Assembly (NCBI GenBank): GCA_903819895.1
Contig: CAIJFH010000027.1
Coordinates: 1,675-65,674, forward strand
DNA from: Candidatus Adlerbacteria bacterium
GTDB taxonomy: Bacteria > Patescibacteriota > Minisyncoccia > Phycocordibacterales > SBAW01
Length of the DNA: 64,000 nt
Reading direction: 5' to 3'
A program made the position numbers and the translations under genes. The notes beneath the pieces were generated by a model. The model was not told the origin of the DNA, ran no database searches, and saw only the letters and a list, made by a program, of their open reading frames with translations. This document shows, piece by piece, positions 6,988-60,746 of the stretch (its first letter is position 1; each line of letters opens with the position of its first letter).

Positions 6988-8079
6988 TTACTTCTTCTCT
7001 CCGGTGAAGGCGAGTGCCATGCGCATCTCTTTGGGGTCAAAGAGCGAGATGGTGAATGGGTAGCGCTTGCCGAGCTCGAGTGCGGCGCTGAGTTTCTCCT
7101 CGCTGCCAAACTCCGACACGTGCACCAAGCCAGCAATGCCCTCCTCTATAGACGCGAGCGCGCCGTGCTTGTTGAACTTGATGACCACGCCCTCGACCTT
7201 GTCGCCCTTGTTGTATTTCTTTGCGGCTTCGCTCCACGGGTTGCTCTTGAGCGCCTTGACCGACAGCGACACTTTGCCATCTTTGATGTCGATAATCTTG
7301 ACCTGCGTCTTGTCGCCAACTTTAAAGAAGTGGCGCGGGTCGTCCACCAAGCCCCAGTCGATCTCCGAGATATGCACCAAGCCCTCGAGGCCTTCCTGCA
7401 GTTTAACAAAGACGCCAAAGTCGACCATGCCGGTCACCTCGCCGTCGACGACGTCGCCAACCTGGTAGTTTTGCACGATCTGCTTCTTCTCTTTATCATC
7501 CGAGCCCTTCTCCGAGAAGATAAGCTTGCCCTCCTTCGGCGTTGCCGAGATGAGCATCACCGGCAACTTTTGCCCGACAAACTTGCGCAGCTCATCGAGG
7601 ATGCGATCCTTATCGCCGTCGGACACGCGCGGGTAGTGCTCGGCTTTGAGCTGCGACGCAGGAAGGAAGCCGACGATACCCTGCCACTCGAGCATGAGCC
7701 CGCCCTTGTTTGCCTCCTTGACCACCAACTCGAAGAGCTGCTTGTTTTTGACCGCGTCCTCGGCCTCGGCCCAGAGCACCGCTTGACGTGCCTCCTTGAG
7801 CGAGAGCTCGATGTAGCCGTCTTTGGTGTCGGTCGCGATGACCTTTGCCTGCACCGTGTCGCCGACGTTGGTGCGCTTAATCACCTCGCGGGCGTTCATG
7901 TACTCGCGGCCATAAATAACGCCCGTACCAAACGGCGGCAGGTCGATGTACAACTTCGCGCGGTCCAGAGCCAAGACCTTGCCCTCGATAATGTCACCCG
8001 CTTTGGGTGGCATCGGTGCCTGCTCCGCAAACGCGGTCATGAGACGCACAACACCATCCTTCTCGATTGTTTCTGTCAT
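6988..8079 (-). CDS. rpsA: 30S ribosomal protein S1 (short 4-domain form)
   Basis: Repeated S1 domains are present (GDIIEGKV..., GDVVDGEVTGMVDFGVFVKL, GDKVEGVVIKFNKHGALASI). A TTGCTA-17-TATAGT promoter and a structured leader lie upstream on the minus strand. Confidence 0.9.
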   Translation of the reverse strand: MTETIEKDGVVRLMTAFAEQAPMPPKAGDIIEGKVLALDRAKLYIDLPPFGTGVIYGREYMNAREVIKRTNVGDTVQAKVIATDTKDGYIELSLKEARQAVLWAEAEDAVKNKQLFELVVKEANKGGLMLEWQGIVGFLPASQLKAEHYPRVSDGDKDRILDELRKFVGQKLPVMLISATPKEGKLIFSEKGSDDKEKKQIVQNYQVGDVVDGEVTGMVDFGVFVKLQEGLEGLVHISEIDWGLVDDPRHFFKVGDKTQVKIIDIKDGKVSLSVKALKSNPWSEAAKKYNKGDKVEGVVIKFNKHGALASIEEGIAGLVHVSEFGSEEKLSAALELGKRYPFTISLFDPKEMRMALAFTGEKK

Positions 8080-8226
8080 ATAATCTATTGATTTGTACGA
8101 TAGGGGCTCTTTGGCTCGCCCCGAGCGACTCCTAGGAGTCGAAGGGCTGTTCCGCAGAGTTTACTCCTACGCGATTTCTCTAATAATTACCCGCCCACCG
8201 AAAGAGCGACGGGATAATTGCTCGAA

Positions 8227-8255
8227 ACTATAGGGGATTTGCTGAAAAATAGCAA
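8227..8255 (-). promoter_or_regulatory. Sigma70-like promoter for rpsA (TTGCTA-17nt-TATAGT on minus strand)
   Basis: The minus-strand sequence TTGCTATTTTTCAGCAAATCCCCTATAGT has correct -35/-10 spacing and sits about 150 nt upstream of the rpsA ATG. Confidence 0.5.
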
Positions 8256-8257
8256 GT

Positions 8258-8300
8258 ATAAAAAGCAAAACCACCCGAAAGCATGGGTAGCTTTGGGTGG
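8258..8300 (-). terminator. Rho-independent terminator (minus strand) downstream of small ORF 8386-8559
   Basis: The minus-strand hairpin CCACCCAAAGC...GCTTTCGGGTGG is followed by TTTTGCTTTTTAT. Confidence 0.55.
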
Positions 8301-8385
8301 GAGTGGGGGAGCCGAAGCTCCCCCGTAGACGGTTGATGGAGCTTGATTTGGTCGGGAAATCCCGACCCTTCGTCGTTGACTGCCG

Positions 8386-8559
8386 TTACGCGCTGCCGCC
8401 CTGGTGCGCCTCGGCGGTGATCTGGCCGGCCTGGGTGATGTGGCCGACGCCGTCCGACGAGTGGTGCTGCGCCGCATCGAGGGGCGGGGCGGTCTGACTG
8501 GCGACGGTGGCGGGCGGAGCAACGGCCGTCGGGCGCGGAATCGAATGGCATCCGGGCAT
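8386..8559 (-). CDS. Candidate small protein (57 aa, Pro/Ala/His-rich) with strong Shine-Dalgarno, own promoter and terminator; function unknown
   Basis: On the minus strand AAAGGAGGA is followed by a 7-nt spacer and then ATG. The product is MPGCHSIPRPTAVAPPATVASQTAPPLDAAQHHSSDGVGHITQAGQITAEAHQGGSA. The region is locally about 70% GC. The call is ab initio only. Confidence 0.3.
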   Translation of the reverse strand: MPGCHSIPRPTAVAPPATVASQTAPPLDAAQHHSSDGVGHITQAGQITAEAHQGGSA

Positions 8560-8666
8560 TGGAAGTCCTCCTTTGTTTCCCCGCGGCATTATGCCGACAG
8601 GGTCGAAGCCGCTCAAGAGTCAGCGAATCTTGTCCGGACAGTGTTTCGCACAAGAACGGCTACCAG

Positions 8667-8699
8667 CAAATCTATAAAATCTCCGTTTTGCTGTCAACT
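8667..8699 (-). promoter_or_regulatory. Candidate promoter (perfect -35 TTGACA, 16-17 nt spacer, TATAGA/TAGATT -10) on minus strand
   Basis: The minus-strand sequence GTTGACAGCAAAACGGAGATTTTATAGATTTGC lies about 115 nt upstream of the small ORF ATG. Confidence 0.4.
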
Positions 8700-8731
8700 A
8701 CTCAAAACGCGGGAGGTGTGGATAGGGTGAA

Positions 8732-8779
8732 GATAAAAAGAGAGTGCGGGCGAGATTCCTGTAAGGAATTCCCGCCCGC
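8732..8779 (-). terminator. Rho-independent terminator (minus strand) ending an upstream ORF-free transcript
   Basis: The minus-strand hairpin GCGGGCGGGAATTCCTTACAGGAATCTCGCCCGC is followed by ACTCTCTTTTTATC. Confidence 0.55.
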
Positions 8780-9075
8780 TTCCTACTTCACGCAGTTTCC
8801 CACGTGAGGGACGCCAAAATCGAGGCGTCCCTAGTCGTCAGCCGTTGGTACTCCGCCAGCTGACGGTGGTGGGCGGATCAACGTTGTTCCGCTCGACACC
8901 CGGCCCTCGGTGGCCACTCCGGAGGGCAGGCCGAAAAAGGGTCTTTTGCACGTGCATCCCTTTCGTGTTTGCCAGAGCGACGATGCTCTGGCGCGGCTGG
9001 TGCACCCAATAAGATTTAGACAGTGCACCCACCTAAACAGTACGTTCATTCACTCTTCATGTCAACAACAGATCT
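8780..9075 (-). ncRNA. Candidate structured non-coding RNA (identity unresolved) in ORF-free region between rpsA and MBL hydrolase gene
   Basis: The minus strand shows serial perfect hairpins (GCCAGAGC-GACGAT-GCTCTGGC; CGTCAGC...GCTGACG; GGGACGCC-TCGATTTT-GGCGTCCC). The segment is bounded by a TTGACA-containing promoter-like sequence near 9060-9080 and the terminator at 8732-8779. No ORF is present. No RNase P, tmRNA or SRP consensus was recognised by eye. Confidence 0.3.
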
Positions 9076-9133
9076 TGGATTGTTTGGATAGGGAAGTGGT
9101 GGAGAATGGTCGGGTGTGATAAAATACTGCTAT

Positions 9134-9781
9134 ATGGTGATCAGCTACCTCGGCGGTGAGTGTTTTAAAATTACCCAAGGCGATTTGACGATCGCAGTTA
9201 ACCCGCCCTCCAAGGACTCGACGCTGAAAGGTGTTAAGTTTGGCGCGGATATCACGCTCGTGTCGCAGGATCACCCCGACTTTAATGGTGTCGAGAGCAA
9301 CATTTTTGGCGAGCGCGAGCCGTTTGTCGTGCGCGGCCCCGGCGAGTACGAGGTGCGCGGCGTGGCGATCCGCGGCTTTGCGTCTGAGTCGCACTATGGC
9401 TTTTCTAATGGCAAGGCGGGGGCAGTGGAGGAATCTCATGTGAATACTATATATAGTATCGTCTTGGAGGGGATGAACCTCTGCTTTTTGGGTGCGCTCG
9501 GCTCGGCAACACTCCCCACTGCCGCCAAGCAGGAGTTGGATGATATTGATATACTATTTCTACCAATTGGAGGAGACGGCATTATCGACTACGCCGAGGC
9601 GTACAAATTGGCGGTGCAGTTGGAGCCCCGGGCAATTATCCCGATGCACTATACTCCCGAGACGCTCAAGCATTTTCTGAAGGAGGCGGGTGCAGACACG
9701 GTCGAGCCGCAGGAAAAACTGACGGTCAAAAAGAAGGATTTGGAAGGGAAGGAAAATGAGATTGTCGTGCTCGCATCGTAG
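9134..9781 (+). CDS. Metallo-beta-lactamase-fold hydrolase (UPF0173-like)
   Basis: The pattern MVISYLGGECFKI...GADITLVSQDHPDFNG...DILFLPIGG...IIPMHY matches the MBL fold of Zn-dependent hydrolases. The start is taken at the internal ATG (ORF from 9116). Confidence 0.75.
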   Translation: MVISYLGGECFKITQGDLTIAVNPPSKDSTLKGVKFGADITLVSQDHPDFNGVESNIFGEREPFVVRGPGEYEVRGVAIRGFASESHYGFSNGKAGAVEESHVNTIYSIVLEGMNLCFLGALGSATLPTAAKQELDDIDILFLPIGGDGIIDYAEAYKLAVQLEPRAIIPMHYTPETLKHFLKEAGADTVEPQEKLTVKKKDLEGKENEIVVLAS

Positions 9782-18730: not shown

Positions 18731-18990
18731 AGGGTTTTCACCACTCTAATCCAATACACTCATTGTGTATCTCTTGTTGCGCATCCGCTAGGCGCACTCT
18801 AGGGCTTTTCGTAGCATAGAGCTGCTCTGGTAATACTCCCAGAATCGGGAAATATAGCTTTTTACAGAGTCCAATGTTTTAATGGCTGTGTCCACTACTT
18901 CGCTCACTGTTTACAGACAGTCGCCGTGTTTCTTTTTTGGCGTAATTCATGTACGCTGCCATCGGCTACGCACAAACAAGGAGAAAAACG

Positions 18991-19224
18991 ATGCTGCAAC
19001 ATCCGGAACCGAAGCAGGTATTGTACCTGGACTATCCCCTTGGTGATTCTAGGGACGCGCCCGAAGTGATCGAATACGTCGCGCGCATGTTCTCTGAACG
19101 AGGACTGCCCGTTGTGTTTTCTTTCTGCGGGATTGCCTACGAATTCAACGGCACAGAGACCGTGCCCGAATGTCTCGAAAAGTGGAGGTATCGGTACCAC
19201 GTCTCCATGGATCTTGATGATTGA
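18991..19224 (+). CDS. Hypothetical protein (78 aa)
   Basis: The RBS aaggag lies before ATG 18991. The ORF is followed by a strong terminator. Confidence 0.45.
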   Translation: MLQHPEPKQVLYLDYPLGDSRDAPEVIEYVARMFSERGLPVVFSFCGIAYEFNGTETVPECLEKWRYRYHVSMDLDD

Positions 19225-19234
19225 GACGCGAAAG

Positions 19235-19288
19235 ACCGCCGCTAAGCACGCTGTGCTTAGCGGCGGTTCGCTGTATTTATTTTTTAAG
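19235..19288. terminator. Bidirectional rho-independent terminator
   Basis: The hairpin ACCGCCGCTAAGCACG-CTG-TGCTTAGCGGCGGT is followed by TCGCTGTATTTATTTTTT. Its complement is A-rich, serving the convergent minus ORF. Confidence 0.7.
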
Positions 19289-19453
19289 CGTACTAAACAC
19301 CGCGCCCACACCTGCTACTTGTTTGGCGACTTGGTCGACGATGGCGGTCTTGATGGGGTAGAGGAGGGAAGTGGGGGTCGCGTGGCTGGCGACCGCGGCG
19401 CTGCCGTAGCCGATGGCGGATAGGAGAATGAGCGAGCCGATGATTGTTGGCAT
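19277..19453 (-). CDS. Hypothetical small hydrophobic protein (58 aa)
   Basis: The product is MPTIIGSLILLSAIGYGSAAVASHATPTSLLYPIKTAIVDQVAKQVAGVGAVFSTLKK (signal/TM). Confidence 0.35.
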   Translation of the reverse strand: MPTIIGSLILLSAIGYGSAAVASHATPTSLLYPIKTAIVDQVAKQVAGVGAVFSTLKK

Positions 19454-19513
19454 ACAGCTAGTATATACCAACTTTCGCCAAGGGCTCTGGTGTGCTAGGA
19501 TGGGCGCATTGGT

Positions 19514-20329
19514 ATGGAGAAAAGCGGTTTACATATATCGCTCGCGGCGGAGCGGCTTGGTACGTTTTTGACGATACCAATCACCAACACGCTCGTTGCC
19601 GAGTTGACGGTCACGGTCGTGCTGCTTGCCACCGCCTTTTTGGTTGGGCGCCGTCCTACGTTGATCCCCGGCGCAGTGCAGAATTTTTTTGAGTCACTTG
19701 TCGAGTTTGTGCTCGGCTATATGGAGGGCGTGCTCGGCTCGCGTGCGCTCGCCGTCAAATTCTTCCCACTCGTCATCACCATCTTTCTGTTTATCGCGAC
19801 CTCCAACCTCTTCGACTTTTTGCCATTTGTTGGCAGTGTCGGCTTTATCCACCCGGGCAGCGAGTTTGTGCCACTCTTCCGCCCCGTCAACACCGACCTC
19901 AACGTCACGCTCGCGCTCGCGATTATTGCGGTAATCTCGATCGAGGTGTCTGGCATCGTCGCCGTGGGCTTTTGGCGCTACGCGGGCAAGTTCTTCAACT
20001 TCTCCTCACCGCTCAACTTTGTGGTCGGCATCATCGAGTTTGTTTCCGAGATGTCGCGATTCATCTCCTTCTCCTTCCGTCTCTTTGGCAACATCTTCGC
20101 GGGCGAGGTGTTGCTTGCGGTCGCGGGCTACTTTATGCCCTACCTCTTGCCGGTGCCCTTGATGGCGTTCGAGACCTTTATCGGCGTTGTCCAAGCGGCA
20201 GTGTTTGCACTCCTCACGCTCTTCTTTATCAAGCTGGCGATTGCTATGCCACACGGAGCAGAGGAGAGTCACCACCACACATCGAACGAGGCACCTGTCT
20301 CGGTCGAGGGTGCGGTTGTGAGCCAGTAG
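19514..20329 (+). CDS. atpB: F0F1 ATP synthase subunit a
   Basis: A polytopic protein with the conserved FSFRLFGNIFAGEVLL (essential Arg) is encoded. Confidence 0.9.
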   Translation: MEKSGLHISLAAERLGTFLTIPITNTLVAELTVTVVLLATAFLVGRRPTLIPGAVQNFFESLVEFVLGYMEGVLGSRALAVKFFPLVITIFLFIATSNLFDFLPFVGSVGFIHPGSEFVPLFRPVNTDLNVTLALAIIAVISIEVSGIVAVGFWRYAGKFFNFSSPLNFVVGIIEFVSEMSRFISFSFRLFGNIFAGEVLLAVAGYFMPYLLPVPLMAFETFIGVVQAAVFALLTLFFIKLAIAMPHGAEESHHHTSNEAPVSVEGAVVSQ

Positions 20330-59838: not shown

Positions 59839-59873
59839 GGTACAATAGGAGCTCGCCTCGCGAGTACGATACT

Positions 59874-60746
59874 ATGAGCTCCTACTATAAACCACATCGC
59901 AACACGGGCTGGAACTATGGTGGCCGCAATTGGCGCCTCTCGCGCAGCAAAATCGCGCTCTTTGTCGAGTGCGCACGTTGCTTCTATATCGACAACAAGC
60001 TCGGCACGGCGCGGCCACCAGGGTTCCCCTTCAATCTCAACTCGGCGGTCGACGCATTGCTCAAGAAAGAGTTCGATATACACCGCACTGCTGCATCGTC
60101 ACACCCGATTATGCAGCAGTATGGCGTCGACGCGGTGCCGTACCAGCATGCCGAGATGGATATTTGGCGCGAGAACTTTAAAGGCATCGAGTTTCGCCAT
60201 CTGCCAACGGGCTTTACTATCGCGGGCGCGGTCGACGATGTGTGGGTCAACCCCCAAGGCGAGCTGATTGTCGTCGACTACAAATCGACCAGCAAGGATG
60301 AAAAAATCGATGCGCTCGACGCCGACTGGCACGACGGCTACAAGCGGCAGATGGAGACGTACCAATGGTTGCTGCGCCAGCGCGGGTTTAAGGTCTCCAA
60401 CACGGGCTACTTTGTCTATGCCAACGCGAGCAAAGATCGCCCCGCGTTCGACGGCAAGCTGGAGTTTGACCTCACGCTGATCCCGCATGTCGGCAATACC
60501 GACTGGATCGAACCAACCATTGCCAAACTCAAACTCTGCCTCGACAGCAACGCGCTCCCCGCCGCTGCACCCGACTGCGACTACTGCACCTACCGCCAAG
60601 CCGTCGAGGATGATTTGCGCGAACACGAGTCAAAACACGGAGGACGGACCTCCGTATCAAAAGAAGTAGAACCCACGCCAGCACCAGCCACAAAACCAGT
60701 AAGCAAAAAATCCAACAGCAGCGAACCAACGGGGCAGCTATTCTAA
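59874..60746 (+). CDS. Cas4/RecB-like PD-(D/E)xK nuclease with four-Cys cluster (orphan, no CRISPR context)
   Basis: N-terminal ECARCFY, the ELIVVDYKSTS core (D, E, K) and C-terminal PDCDYCTY are present. A palindromic GGACGGACC hairpin lies inside the 3' end (60637-60655), so the true stop may be earlier or the tail is a low-complexity extension. Confidence 0.65.
   Translation: MSSYYKPHRNTGWNYGGRNWRLSRSKIALFVECARCFYIDNKLGTARPPGFPFNLNSAVDALLKKEFDIHRTAASSHPIMQQYGVDAVPYQHAEMDIWRENFKGIEFRHLPTGFTIAGAVDDVWVNPQGELIVVDYKSTSKDEKIDALDADWHDGYKRQMETYQWLLRQRGFKVSNTGYFVYANASKDRPAFDGKLEFDLTLIPHVGNTDWIEPTIAKLKLCLDSNALPAAAPDCDYCTYRQAVEDDLREHESKHGGRTSVSKEVEPTPAPATKPVSKKSNSSEPTGQLF

Follow-up and report, generated by a model that had tools for sequence, protein, structure and literature searches.

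We describe here the interval between rpsA, the gene for ribosomal protein S1, and a divergently oriented gene for a metallo-β-lactamase (MBL)-fold hydrolase on contig CAIJFH010000027.1 of a Candidatus Adlerbacteria bacterium. The whole stretch that was analyzed, 64,000 nucleotides (nt) long, is called the window, and all positions refer to it. The rpsA gene (6988-8079, minus strand) is separated by 1036 nt from the hydrolase open reading frame (ORF), which opens at 9116 on the plus strand. This interval, 8080-9115, is the widest gap on a crude ORF map of the tightly packed window, in agreement with an earlier note, made from the sequence alone, that had singled it out as the longest stretch without a convincing gene. 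Nearly all of the sequence features listed in that note were recovered, with coordinates that agree with its own exactly or to a few bases. We read the spacer as a slot for small monocistronic cassettes that is followed by a regulatory leader for S1, and we hold this three-unit model, taken as a whole, to be probably correct, with considerable room for doubt. The three units lie one after the other on the minus strand: unit 1, a hairpin-rich element next to the hydrolase gene; unit 2, which contains an ORF of 57 amino acids (aa); and unit 3, the promoter and leader of rpsA (Table 1).

Transcription signals in the interval

Because the flanking genes diverge and the hydrolase gene has a -10 element of its own, the minus-strand promoters and terminators between them belong to neither neighbor. 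Promoters were sought with a scanner for sigma-70-type sites (TTGACA and TATAAT separated by 16 to 18 nt, with a minimum of 9/12 matches overall and 4 in each hexamer). A consensus scan of 7900-9400 gave four promoter-like sites, compared to 0.6 ± 0.7 in shuffled sequences, and three promoters on the minus strand are ordered so as to fit three units. Two that the earlier note had proposed, P2 before unit 2 and P3 before rpsA, are called by the scanner, and P3 is kept across relatives. The third, P1 before unit 1, is present with a perfect -35 hexamer, but its -10 hexamer (3/6 matches, for a total of 9/12) is too weak for the scanner rule and the site was not called.

The terminator that had been placed at 8258-8300, between unit 2 and rpsA, is called by the scanner at 8300-8260 (T2). 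Its U-run adjoins the -35 hexamer of the rpsA promoter, and in L043, a locus of the sister species described below, the stem is altered in sequence yet still pairs. The terminator at 8732-8779 (T1), described earlier as clean, does have a long G+C-rich stem of 14 to 15 base pairs (bp), but the U-run begins 6 nt past the stem and the strict scanner did not call it. T1 is a terminator-like hairpin with a displaced U-run, a near miss of the canonical pattern. The G+C content rises to 68 to 70% over 8300-8600, compared to about 55% in the surroundings, which bears out the segment of about 70% reported previously.

A conserved leader RNA before rpsA

Across Adlerbacteria, the 141-nt leader that directly precedes rpsA has a conserved fold with strong support from covariation. 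For 29 compact leaders aligned with plain MAFFT, RNAalifold yielded two helices with compensatory changes at eight of nine pairs. A covariance model, R1, was built from these helices and the obvious 5' hairpin. It gives one match per locus, always directly 5' of rpsA, in 79 of 95 sources, and it finds sequences outside its seed: the window (35.6 bits, E = 4e-4, 8222-8082), L043, and L001. In the model alignment (67 distinct rows), 93.9% of the cells are paired and 17 of the 18 pairs show double-sided changes. The covariation score is 0.586, compared to 0.241 after shuffling (not reached in any of 500 shuffles) and no more than 0.16 with the pairing partners slid by 1 to 3 columns. The 67-row alignment is fitted to the model; the RNAalifold result, obtained from an unfitted alignment, agrees with it. 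In addition to hairpin H1 and the helices designated P2 and P3 (not to be confused with the promoters), the leader has a conserved internal loop, AGUAAA, and an unpaired, A/C-rich tail, CGUACAAAUCAAUA, which reaches the AUG and contains no Shine-Dalgarno sequence (SD).

The S1 leader that has been studied experimentally is confined to gamma-proteobacteria, and a cyanobacterial rpsA motif (Cyano-S1) is unrelated to it (PMC3616713). The leader described here has no Rfam match in the window or in three strong relatives. A survey of new ribosomal leaders (Eckert and Weinberg 2020) makes no mention of rpsA or of the candidate phyla radiation (CPR), and we found no CPR ribosomal-protein leader described in Rfam 15 or in that survey. 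Like the gamma-proteobacterial S1 leader (Boni et al. 2001; PMC3616713) and Cyano-S1, the element is a structured 5' untranslated region directly before rpsA. It further shares with these known leaders the lack of an SD, an A-rich single strand near the start codon, and several hairpins whose conservation, with covariation, is confined to a single lineage. It differs in architecture: three hairpins with GGA loops there, and H1, helix P2, and helix P3 with the AGUAAA loop here. By analogy, the leader most likely controls the initiation of S1 translation, probably with feedback by S1 through the leader, the binding of S1 being putative. It is the best-supported RNA element of the interval, and it was missed by the earlier note.

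Unit 2 and its conservation in a sister species

Relatives of the locus were gathered by scanning genome and metagenome contigs with S1 and by expanding the clusters, drawn at 90% identity, to which S1 and the hydrolase belong. The closest S1 relatives are encoded in metagenome-assembled genomes of Candidatus Adlerbacteria and Paceibacteria. The best of them is L043, with 96% aa identity, and the rest have at most 88%. In a blastn comparison with about 150 related loci, unit 2 was found only in L043 and identical contigs. The sister species that carries it comprises L043 and L145 to L151, and the remaining contigs with the unit come from the same species as the window (99.9% identity). Exact-seed scans of viral contigs gave no matches.

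The 58 nt around P2, which include the upstream motif TATCCACAC, differ from L043 at a single base, and the rpsA promoter and the start of the rpsA leader are nearly identical. The first 60 nt or so of the unit 2 transcript have diverged. They are followed by 47 nt, 98% identical, that hold the leader hairpin CCCUGUCGGCAUAAUGCCGCGGGG (8602-8579), the SD, and the ATG. Past the hairpin, the unpaired segment AAACAAAGGAGGA (8574-8566) contains the SD AGGAGG at 8572-8567, 7 nt 5' of the ATG at 8559. The strong SD of the earlier note is therefore real, and its spacing of 7 nt is right when measured from AGGAGG (6 nt if counted from AAAGGAGGA). In the minimum-free-energy folds of both species the SD is unpaired, as is the ATG. 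Hairpins A and B, which lie past the stop codon, are both preserved in L043, as judged from the alignment and from folds. This pattern of conservation indicates, on sequence grounds, that the expression signals of unit 2, 98 to 100% conserved between the two species, are under constraint, whereas the content of its ORF is not, or is so only weakly. A CCCACCC stretch near the 3' terminus of the unit was considered as a single-stranded seed and rejected, as it is paired inside T2.

The ORF itself is present as first described, GC-rich and 57 aa long. It is not absent from annotation, as had been claimed: gene callers predict it, and public protein sets hold an unnamed entry for it (P0001). Its reading frame scores 0.22 to 0.36 per codon in a comparison with the codon usage of the genome, and the other frames score negative. 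For reference, the score is 0.37 ± 0.21 for true chunks of 60 codons and -0.59 ± 0.21 for wrong frames, the latter with a 99th percentile of -0.04. The 57-aa frame alone thus has codon usage like that of the genes of this genome, within the range of true chunks of 57 to 60 codons, and its G+C content is highest at third and lowest at second codon positions (GC3 > GC1 > GC2). The counterpart in L043 starts at the same ATG and is 28 aa long, with a body that is mostly unalignable. Both peptides contain ATVA(S)QT, coded by GCCACCGTCGCC[AGT]CAGACC across a 3-nt indel, and both contain GH(I/A)TQA, with four synonymous codon differences (TCG/AGC, GGC/GGT, ACC/ACG, and GCC/GCG). The indels between the alignable blocks are in frame.

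The peptide has no Pfam or NCBIfam match. A single-sequence AlphaFold model has a mean predicted local distance difference test (pLDDT) score of 62.6, a predicted template modeling (pTM) score of 0.17, and no secondary structure, and the protein is accordingly predicted to be disordered. Unit 2 is most likely a small orphan protein gene that, judging from its signals, would be transcribed and translated. It resembles other orphan or lineage-restricted short ORF (sORF) genes of bacteria in having a promoter, a leader, a strong SD, an ATG, a short ORF, and a terminator, and also in its gene-like codons, fast turnover, predicted disorder, and lack of a known domain. It differs from them in occupying a slot, between the hydrolase gene and rpsA, that in many Adlerbacteria is filled by unrelated small ORFs, and the slot of the window differs also in holding a degenerate tandem copy.

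The slot in related genomes

The divergent order of hydrolase gene and rpsA is kept in about 40 genomes, with spacers from 119 to about 1270 nt, of which only the last 120 to 170 nt can be aligned. In many of the longer spacers, a promoter of the form TTGACA-17-TATAxT, an ORF of 45 to 80 codons led by an SD, and an intrinsic terminator are found, on the rpsA strand and just 5' of the rpsA promoter. Among 47 nonredundant spacers of at least 350 nt, an SD-led ORF of 35 to 100 aa followed by a terminator occurs on the rpsA strand in 15 and on the opposite strand in none. Two such units stand in tandem in L004 and L060, and relatives with spacers of 119 to 178 nt lack the small-ORF unit altogether. 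This recurrence raises the likelihood that the window holds a real small gene; it is silent on function.

The encoded peptides are heterogeneous. They include hydrophilic Q/G/P-rich sequences with DAG[LVM]G, a group with MQRHGGSN, and a group of 80 aa with a signal-peptide-like hydrophobic N terminus. Some form small families with protein-level conservation among several genomes, and 19 small ORFs of the slot gave no Pfam or NCBIfam match. The idea that all belong to one fast-evolving family was rejected, as a joint alignment shows no common family. One distinct occupant of the slot is a conserved ORF of 69 to 107 aa with the motif STLPWPF, at about -420 to -170 before rpsA in L093, L074, L080, and L091. 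From its SD-led start it is about 80 aa long in L093, L074, and L080, again with a signal-peptide-like hydrophobic N terminus.

In four relatives (L103, at -892 to -821, and L106, at -531 to -460 relative to rpsA, together with L044 and L008), the units open with a short, conserved element made up of CUGUACC..CAGACAGG, a hairpin, and a U-run. The element lies about 50 nt past the promoter and before the SD, and it looks like an early terminator of the attenuator or riboswitch type. A leader motif, CTGTACC..CAGACARG, shared by the window with L044, L103, and L106 was also considered, and it was rejected because the matches are too few and too weak.

In the sister species, a rearrangement has parted the hydrolase gene from rpsA, which is preceded there by an RND-MFP gene and unit 2. 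The other side of the break is seen at L152:2900-3500, where thrS is followed by ORFs of 63 aa and 50 aa before the hydrolase gene; the break falls exactly at the spacer of the window. The same segment of L152 contains a hairpin element, GCGCCACC..GGTGGCGC (gtgcaccacctgccccaaggtggcgcat), repeated twice.

Unit 1 as a probable sister copy of unit 2

For the segment from 8730 to 9050, the minus strand has a folding energy of -150.4 kcal/mol (z = -7.6) and the plus strand one of -138.7 kcal/mol (z = -5.7); the z-scores for unit 1 range from -5.6 to -7.6. Among 199 tiles of 320 nt that cover the window, z averages -0.56 with a standard deviation of 1.27, and one other tile equals unit 1. The hairpins of the transcript of about 290 nt proposed in the earlier note are therefore well founded. 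The statement that it lacks an ORF is not quite right, as a frame runs from GTG 9032 (64 aa) or ATG 8957 (39 aa) to a stop at 8838, with no usable SD. The codon score of this frame, 0.059, is borderline; it is the best in unit 1 and exceeds the 99th percentile for wrong frames, and the frame again has GC3 > GC1 > GC2.

Unit 1 resembles unit 2 in a series of colinear blocks. The upstream motif CCCTATCCAMAC, followed after 16 to 18 nt by GTTGACA, occurs only 5' of P1 and P2, and the pattern CCTATCCAMAC-N10-22-TTGACA has two sites in 64 kb, with none expected. Early in the transcript the two units have CACTGTC in common, and in each AAACA..AAGG..ATG comes after a hairpin; the unit 1 copy of this ribosome-binding region, AAACACGAAAGGGATG at 8970-8955, is degenerate. 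A 22-mer is shared with 91% identity and would encode V-D-P-P-T-T-V in unit 1 and V-A-P-P-A-T-V in the 57-aa protein, and a hairpin with GAAG(C)GGKCGGGAWTTCC is present in both. The global alignment of the two units scores 176.5, compared to 140.6 ± 10.1 for 246 control segments of the window, from which the unit region itself was excluded and none of which scored as high. Based on these blocks and this score, we read unit 1 as probably a diverged tandem copy of the unit 2 cassette.

No homologue of unit 1 was found in any of the approximately 150 related loci, those of the sister species included, and the other contigs that carry it belong to the same species as the window (99.9% identity). 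Its 64-aa frame, compared with a collection of 5.8 billion proteins, finds nothing, not even itself, and there is no called gene at the frame on any contig gathered for the locus. Unit 1 is most likely a structured, noncoding, and possibly functionless transcript, if it is transcribed as its promoter-like site would imply; a small leaderless gene is the main alternative. It is similar to trans-acting small RNAs (sRNAs) in its promoter-like site, the lack of a usable ribosome-binding site, its strong structure, and a terminator-like 3' hairpin, and it differs from them in its length (about 300 nt), its restriction to one species, its weak -10 and displaced U-run, and its apparent derivation from an sORF cassette. 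Of the independent small transcription units first suggested, unit 2 is supported, with signals conserved in L043 and similar units in 15 of the 47 spacers of relatives; unit 1 has more the look of a diverged cassette copy than of an independent sRNA gene. A role of unit 1 as a long plus-strand leader of the hydrolase gene was rejected, given the -10 element at the hydrolase ATG and the relatives that manage with spacers of 119 to 178 nt.

Searches for known RNA and protein families

At gathering scores, cmscan with Rfam 15 reports only three tRNAs in the whole window, and ARAGORN likewise finds three tRNAs and no transfer-messenger RNA (tmRNA). In a permissive search of 7900-9300 (E ≤ 10, relaxed filters) there was no match to RNase P RNA, tmRNA, signal recognition particle (SRP) RNA, or 6S RNA, and only a subthreshold match to Yfr1 and a noise match to a microRNA appeared. 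No Rfam family explains the hairpins, and the suggestion that a divergent RNase P, tmRNA, or SRP RNA might be hidden among them finds no support. None of the nine ORFs of the interval matches Pfam.

The Yfr1 (RF01116) match covers 8269-8324 with 26.9 bits (gathering score, 38; E = 0.007 in a small search space). As in this cyanobacterial sRNA, the segment 8324-8269 has a C-rich stretch with a G+C-rich hairpin on either side. The ACUCCUCACAC box, however, which is single-stranded and intact in Yfr1, is interrupted here by a 3-nt gap; the second "hairpin" is the longer terminator T2, the phylum is wrong, and what is matched is where the mRNA of an sORF ends. We regard the match as spurious, being below the threshold and having its C-rich stretch paired inside T2. 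A match to NsiR1 in a relative (L044:1332-1388, minus strand; 29.4 bits, gathering score 39, E = 0.04) is probably due to chance.

Table 1. Coordinates of the features of the interval and of the adjoining hydrolase gene
Feature	Position	Strand	Sequence or content	Basis
MBL-fold hydrolase gene	9116 or 9134 to 9781	+		Pfam Lactamase_B_3, E 1.5e-28
Hydrolase extended -10	9117..9136	+	TGaTAAAAT 9117-9125, 8 nt 5' of ATG 9134	sequence
Upstream motif of P1	9082..9093	-	CCCTATCCAAAC, 16 nt 5' of GTTGACA of P1; copies the motif before P2	pattern search
P1	9037..9065	-	TTGACA 9065-9060, 17 nt, TACTGT 9042-9037	sequence
Unit 1	8733..9032	-	about 300 nt, about nine consecutive hairpins	fold
T1	8735..8779	-	stem GCGGGCGGGAAUUCC / GGAAUcUCGCCCGC (8779-8746), ACUCUC, UUUUU (8739-8735)	sequence, fold
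Upstream motif of P2	8716..8727	-	CCCTATCCACAC, 18 nt 5' of GTTGACA of P2; L043 form TTATCCACAC	
P2	8669..8697	-	TTGACA 8697-8692, 17 nt, TAGATT 8674-8669	scanner 10/12
Unit 2 (P2 to T2)	about 8662-8260	-	promoter, hairpin, SD, 57-aa ORF, two hairpins, terminator	
Unit 2 leader	8560..8662	-	variable 5' hairpin domain, conserved hairpin, unpaired SD	
57-aa ORF	8386..8559	-	MPGCHSIPRPTAVAPPATVASQTAPPLDAAQHHSSDGVGHITQAGQITAEAHQGGSA, Pro/Ala/His-rich	ORF list
Hairpin A	8367-8350 (in 8305..8367)	-	GGUCGGG-AUUU-CCCGACC, past the stop codon	folds
Hairpin B	8324-8305 (in 8305..8367)	-	GGGGGAGC-UUCG-GCUCCCCC, past the stop codon	folds
T2	8260..8300	-	intrinsic terminator of unit 2	scanner, folds
P3 (rpsA promoter)	8227..8255	-	TTGCTA 8255-8250, 17 nt, TATAGT 8232-8227	scanner 9/12
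rpsA 5' leader	8082..8222	-	141 nt, structured	covariance model, RNAalifold
Leader H1	8219-8182	-		model pair coordinates
Leader helix P2	8170-8166 with 8104-8100	-	GUAGG with CCUAU	model pair coordinates
Leader helix P3	8159-8156 with 8110-8107	-	CUCU with AGAG, around a lineage-specific insert	model pair coordinates

The hydrolase gene and other parts of the window

Gene callers start the hydrolase at ATG 9134 (215 aa), which is likely the true start, and the gene is followed by a 108-aa ORF and then by gyrA. Its mRNA is, from the position of the extended -10, essentially leaderless. Because this element adjoins the ATG, the spacer is not needed as a leader for the hydrolase. Elsewhere in the window, many long ORFs have a -10-like TATAxT a few bases 5' of the start codon, and an SD-like motif precedes 3 of the 31 long ORFs, both at crude starts (those of the longest ORF). 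This suggests that leaderless mRNAs are frequent in this genome.

The second-largest apparent gap, 18731-19513, contains a 77-aa ORF (18991-19224, plus strand) with AAACAAGGAG 7 nt 5' of its ATG, a terminator hairpin of 16 bp at 19234-19268, and the sole tile as extreme in folding as unit 1 (19201-19520; z = -5.7); a short minus-strand open frame may lie at about 19290-19450. Low fold z-scores were also recorded for tiles 59841-60160 (-4.7) and 1601-1920 (-4.2), within apparent coding regions.

Discussion

We propose that the interval works as three units in series. In unit 1, a tandem copy of the cassette would have kept a promoter-like site and a terminator-like hairpin and lost a usable ribosome-binding site; if transcribed, it would give a hairpin-rich RNA of about 300 nt that is probably noncoding. 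In unit 2, a sigma-70-type promoter with a conserved upstream motif would drive a leader of about 100 nt, whose hairpin leaves the SD free. The mRNA would encode a fast-evolving, disordered orphan protein of 57 residues, and two hairpins and an intrinsic terminator would end the transcript. In unit 3, the rpsA promoter and the folded leader of 141 nt would govern the initiation of S1 synthesis, probably with feedback by S1. From the arrangement of these elements we infer that units 1 and 2 are transcribed, that the 57-aa ORF is translated, and that S1 exerts feedback on its leader.

Several results weigh against parts of this proposal. Among 5.8 billion proteins, the 57-aa peptide finds only exact copies of itself and no homologue. 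Its ORF is halved and largely unalignable in L043 although S1 is 96% identical there, and the SD of L043, AAAGGGGA, is weaker. The comparison of the two peptides rests on one relative, with 57 codons set beside 28 in a post hoc alignment, and has a BLASTP E value of 0.066. At 70% G+C an open frame of 57 codons is expected in about one case in three, and two further frames, of 141 aa and 111 aa, overlap this one. The slot ORFs of relatives are not demonstrably homologous to it, which makes the argument drawn from them one of position and not of orthology. For unit 1, the alignment with unit 2 exceeds shuffled sequences by a modest margin (z = 3.6), BLASTP finds no match between its frame and the 57-aa protein, and with the poor -10 of P1 and the displaced U-run of T1 the unit may be transcribed weakly or not at all.

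Some of these same results can be read to mean that unit 2 specifies a noncoding or dual-function RNA, in which function resides in the conserved hairpin, the "SD," and the 3' hairpins, and the 57-aa frame is open by accident, owing to the high G+C content. Conservation does peak in the promoter, in the block of hairpin and SD, and in the 3' hairpins, and it is lowest in the ORF body, which drops from 57 to 28 codons. The peptide lacks both homologues and, according to AlphaFold, a fold; open frames such as the overlapping ones of 141 aa and 111 aa are expected at this G+C content; and few long ORFs of the window, 3 of 31, show an SD at their crude start. We nevertheless think this unlikely, while taking it seriously, because AGGAGG and the ATG 7 nt beyond it are conserved and unpaired in two species, because only the 57-aa frame has gene-like codons and gene callers choose that ORF, and because the indels are in frame and the common motifs persist through synonymous changes. 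SD-led small ORFs with terminators, some conserved as protein, also recur in the slot, and no Rfam family matches the unit. The converse proposal for unit 1, that it too encodes a small protein, a paralogue of the 57-aa one, either from a leaderless mRNA that begins at GTG 9032 (64 aa) or with translation from ATG 8957 (39 aa), strikes us as rather improbable. The GTG lies 5 nt past the -10 of P1 in a genome with many leaderless-looking genes, the codon score of 0.059 is above the 99th percentile of wrong frames, the order GC3 > GC1 > GC2 holds, and the two copies of the 22-mer are in the same frame, giving V[AD]PP[AT]TV. Yet GUG is a poor leaderless start, GAAAGGG abuts ATG 8957 at an unusable spacing, and six stable hairpins lie within the frame, which is unusual for coding sequence; there is, moreover, no called gene, no homologue, and no BLASTP match to the 57-aa protein.

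A regulatory link between unit 2 and rpsA is conceivable if the sORF and T2 act as an attenuator, with translation of a leader peptide setting the read-through from P2 into rpsA. The sORF unit does terminate directly 5' of rpsA, its Pro-Pro motifs could stall ribosomes, and several units of relatives have early hairpin and U-run elements. Such an arrangement is nonetheless very doubtful: rpsA has its own well-conserved promoter past T2; some 90 nt, which include two stable hairpins, separate the stop codon from T2, and no alternative antiterminator pairing is evident; and the peptide is long and not conserved, its PP motifs being absent in L043. Relatives with spacers of 119 to 178 nt do without the unit. 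We give almost no credence to the view that unit 1 represents a housekeeping RNA or another known RNA (such as RNase P RNA, tmRNA, SRP RNA, 6S RNA, or a riboswitch) that has diverged too far to be recognized by eye. A length of about 300 nt and strong structure would suit a stable RNA, and CPR genomes are divergent, but Rfam 15 gives no family match at gathering scores or in the permissive search of 7900-9300 apart from the subthreshold Yfr1 and noise microRNA matches, ARAGORN finds no tmRNA, about 150 related loci hold no counterpart, and what unit 1 does resemble is unit 2 and not an RNA family.

The features of the interval, as we see them in the three-unit model, are all of known kinds, locally interesting and without new biology. 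For this genome, an apparently empty kilobase is resolved into defined parts, and a housekeeping RNA hidden in it finds no support. The strand-specific slot, together with a pair of cassettes that appears to have arisen by duplication and decay, offers a tractable example of rapid small-gene turnover across Adlerbacteria genomes. A bolder view, which we advance as speculation and consider quite improbable, is that the hydrolase-rpsA spacer of Adlerbacteria is a hotspot of small-gene birth, tandem duplication, and loss, where cassettes of promoter, SD, sORF, and terminator would originate or insert, duplicate, and decay, and where they are possibly tied to S1 or the ribosome. If this were true, small disordered proteins or RNAs might modulate S1-dependent initiation in a largely SD-poor, leaderless-prone CPR genome. 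The rpsA leader, the firmest and most useful outcome of the analysis, could enter Rfam as a new family, for which it is a clean candidate. It is a candidate leader for S1, supported by covariation, in a lineage other than gamma-proteobacteria and cyanobacteria, and it offers a way into S1 synthesis and the control of SD-independent initiation in reduced genomes.

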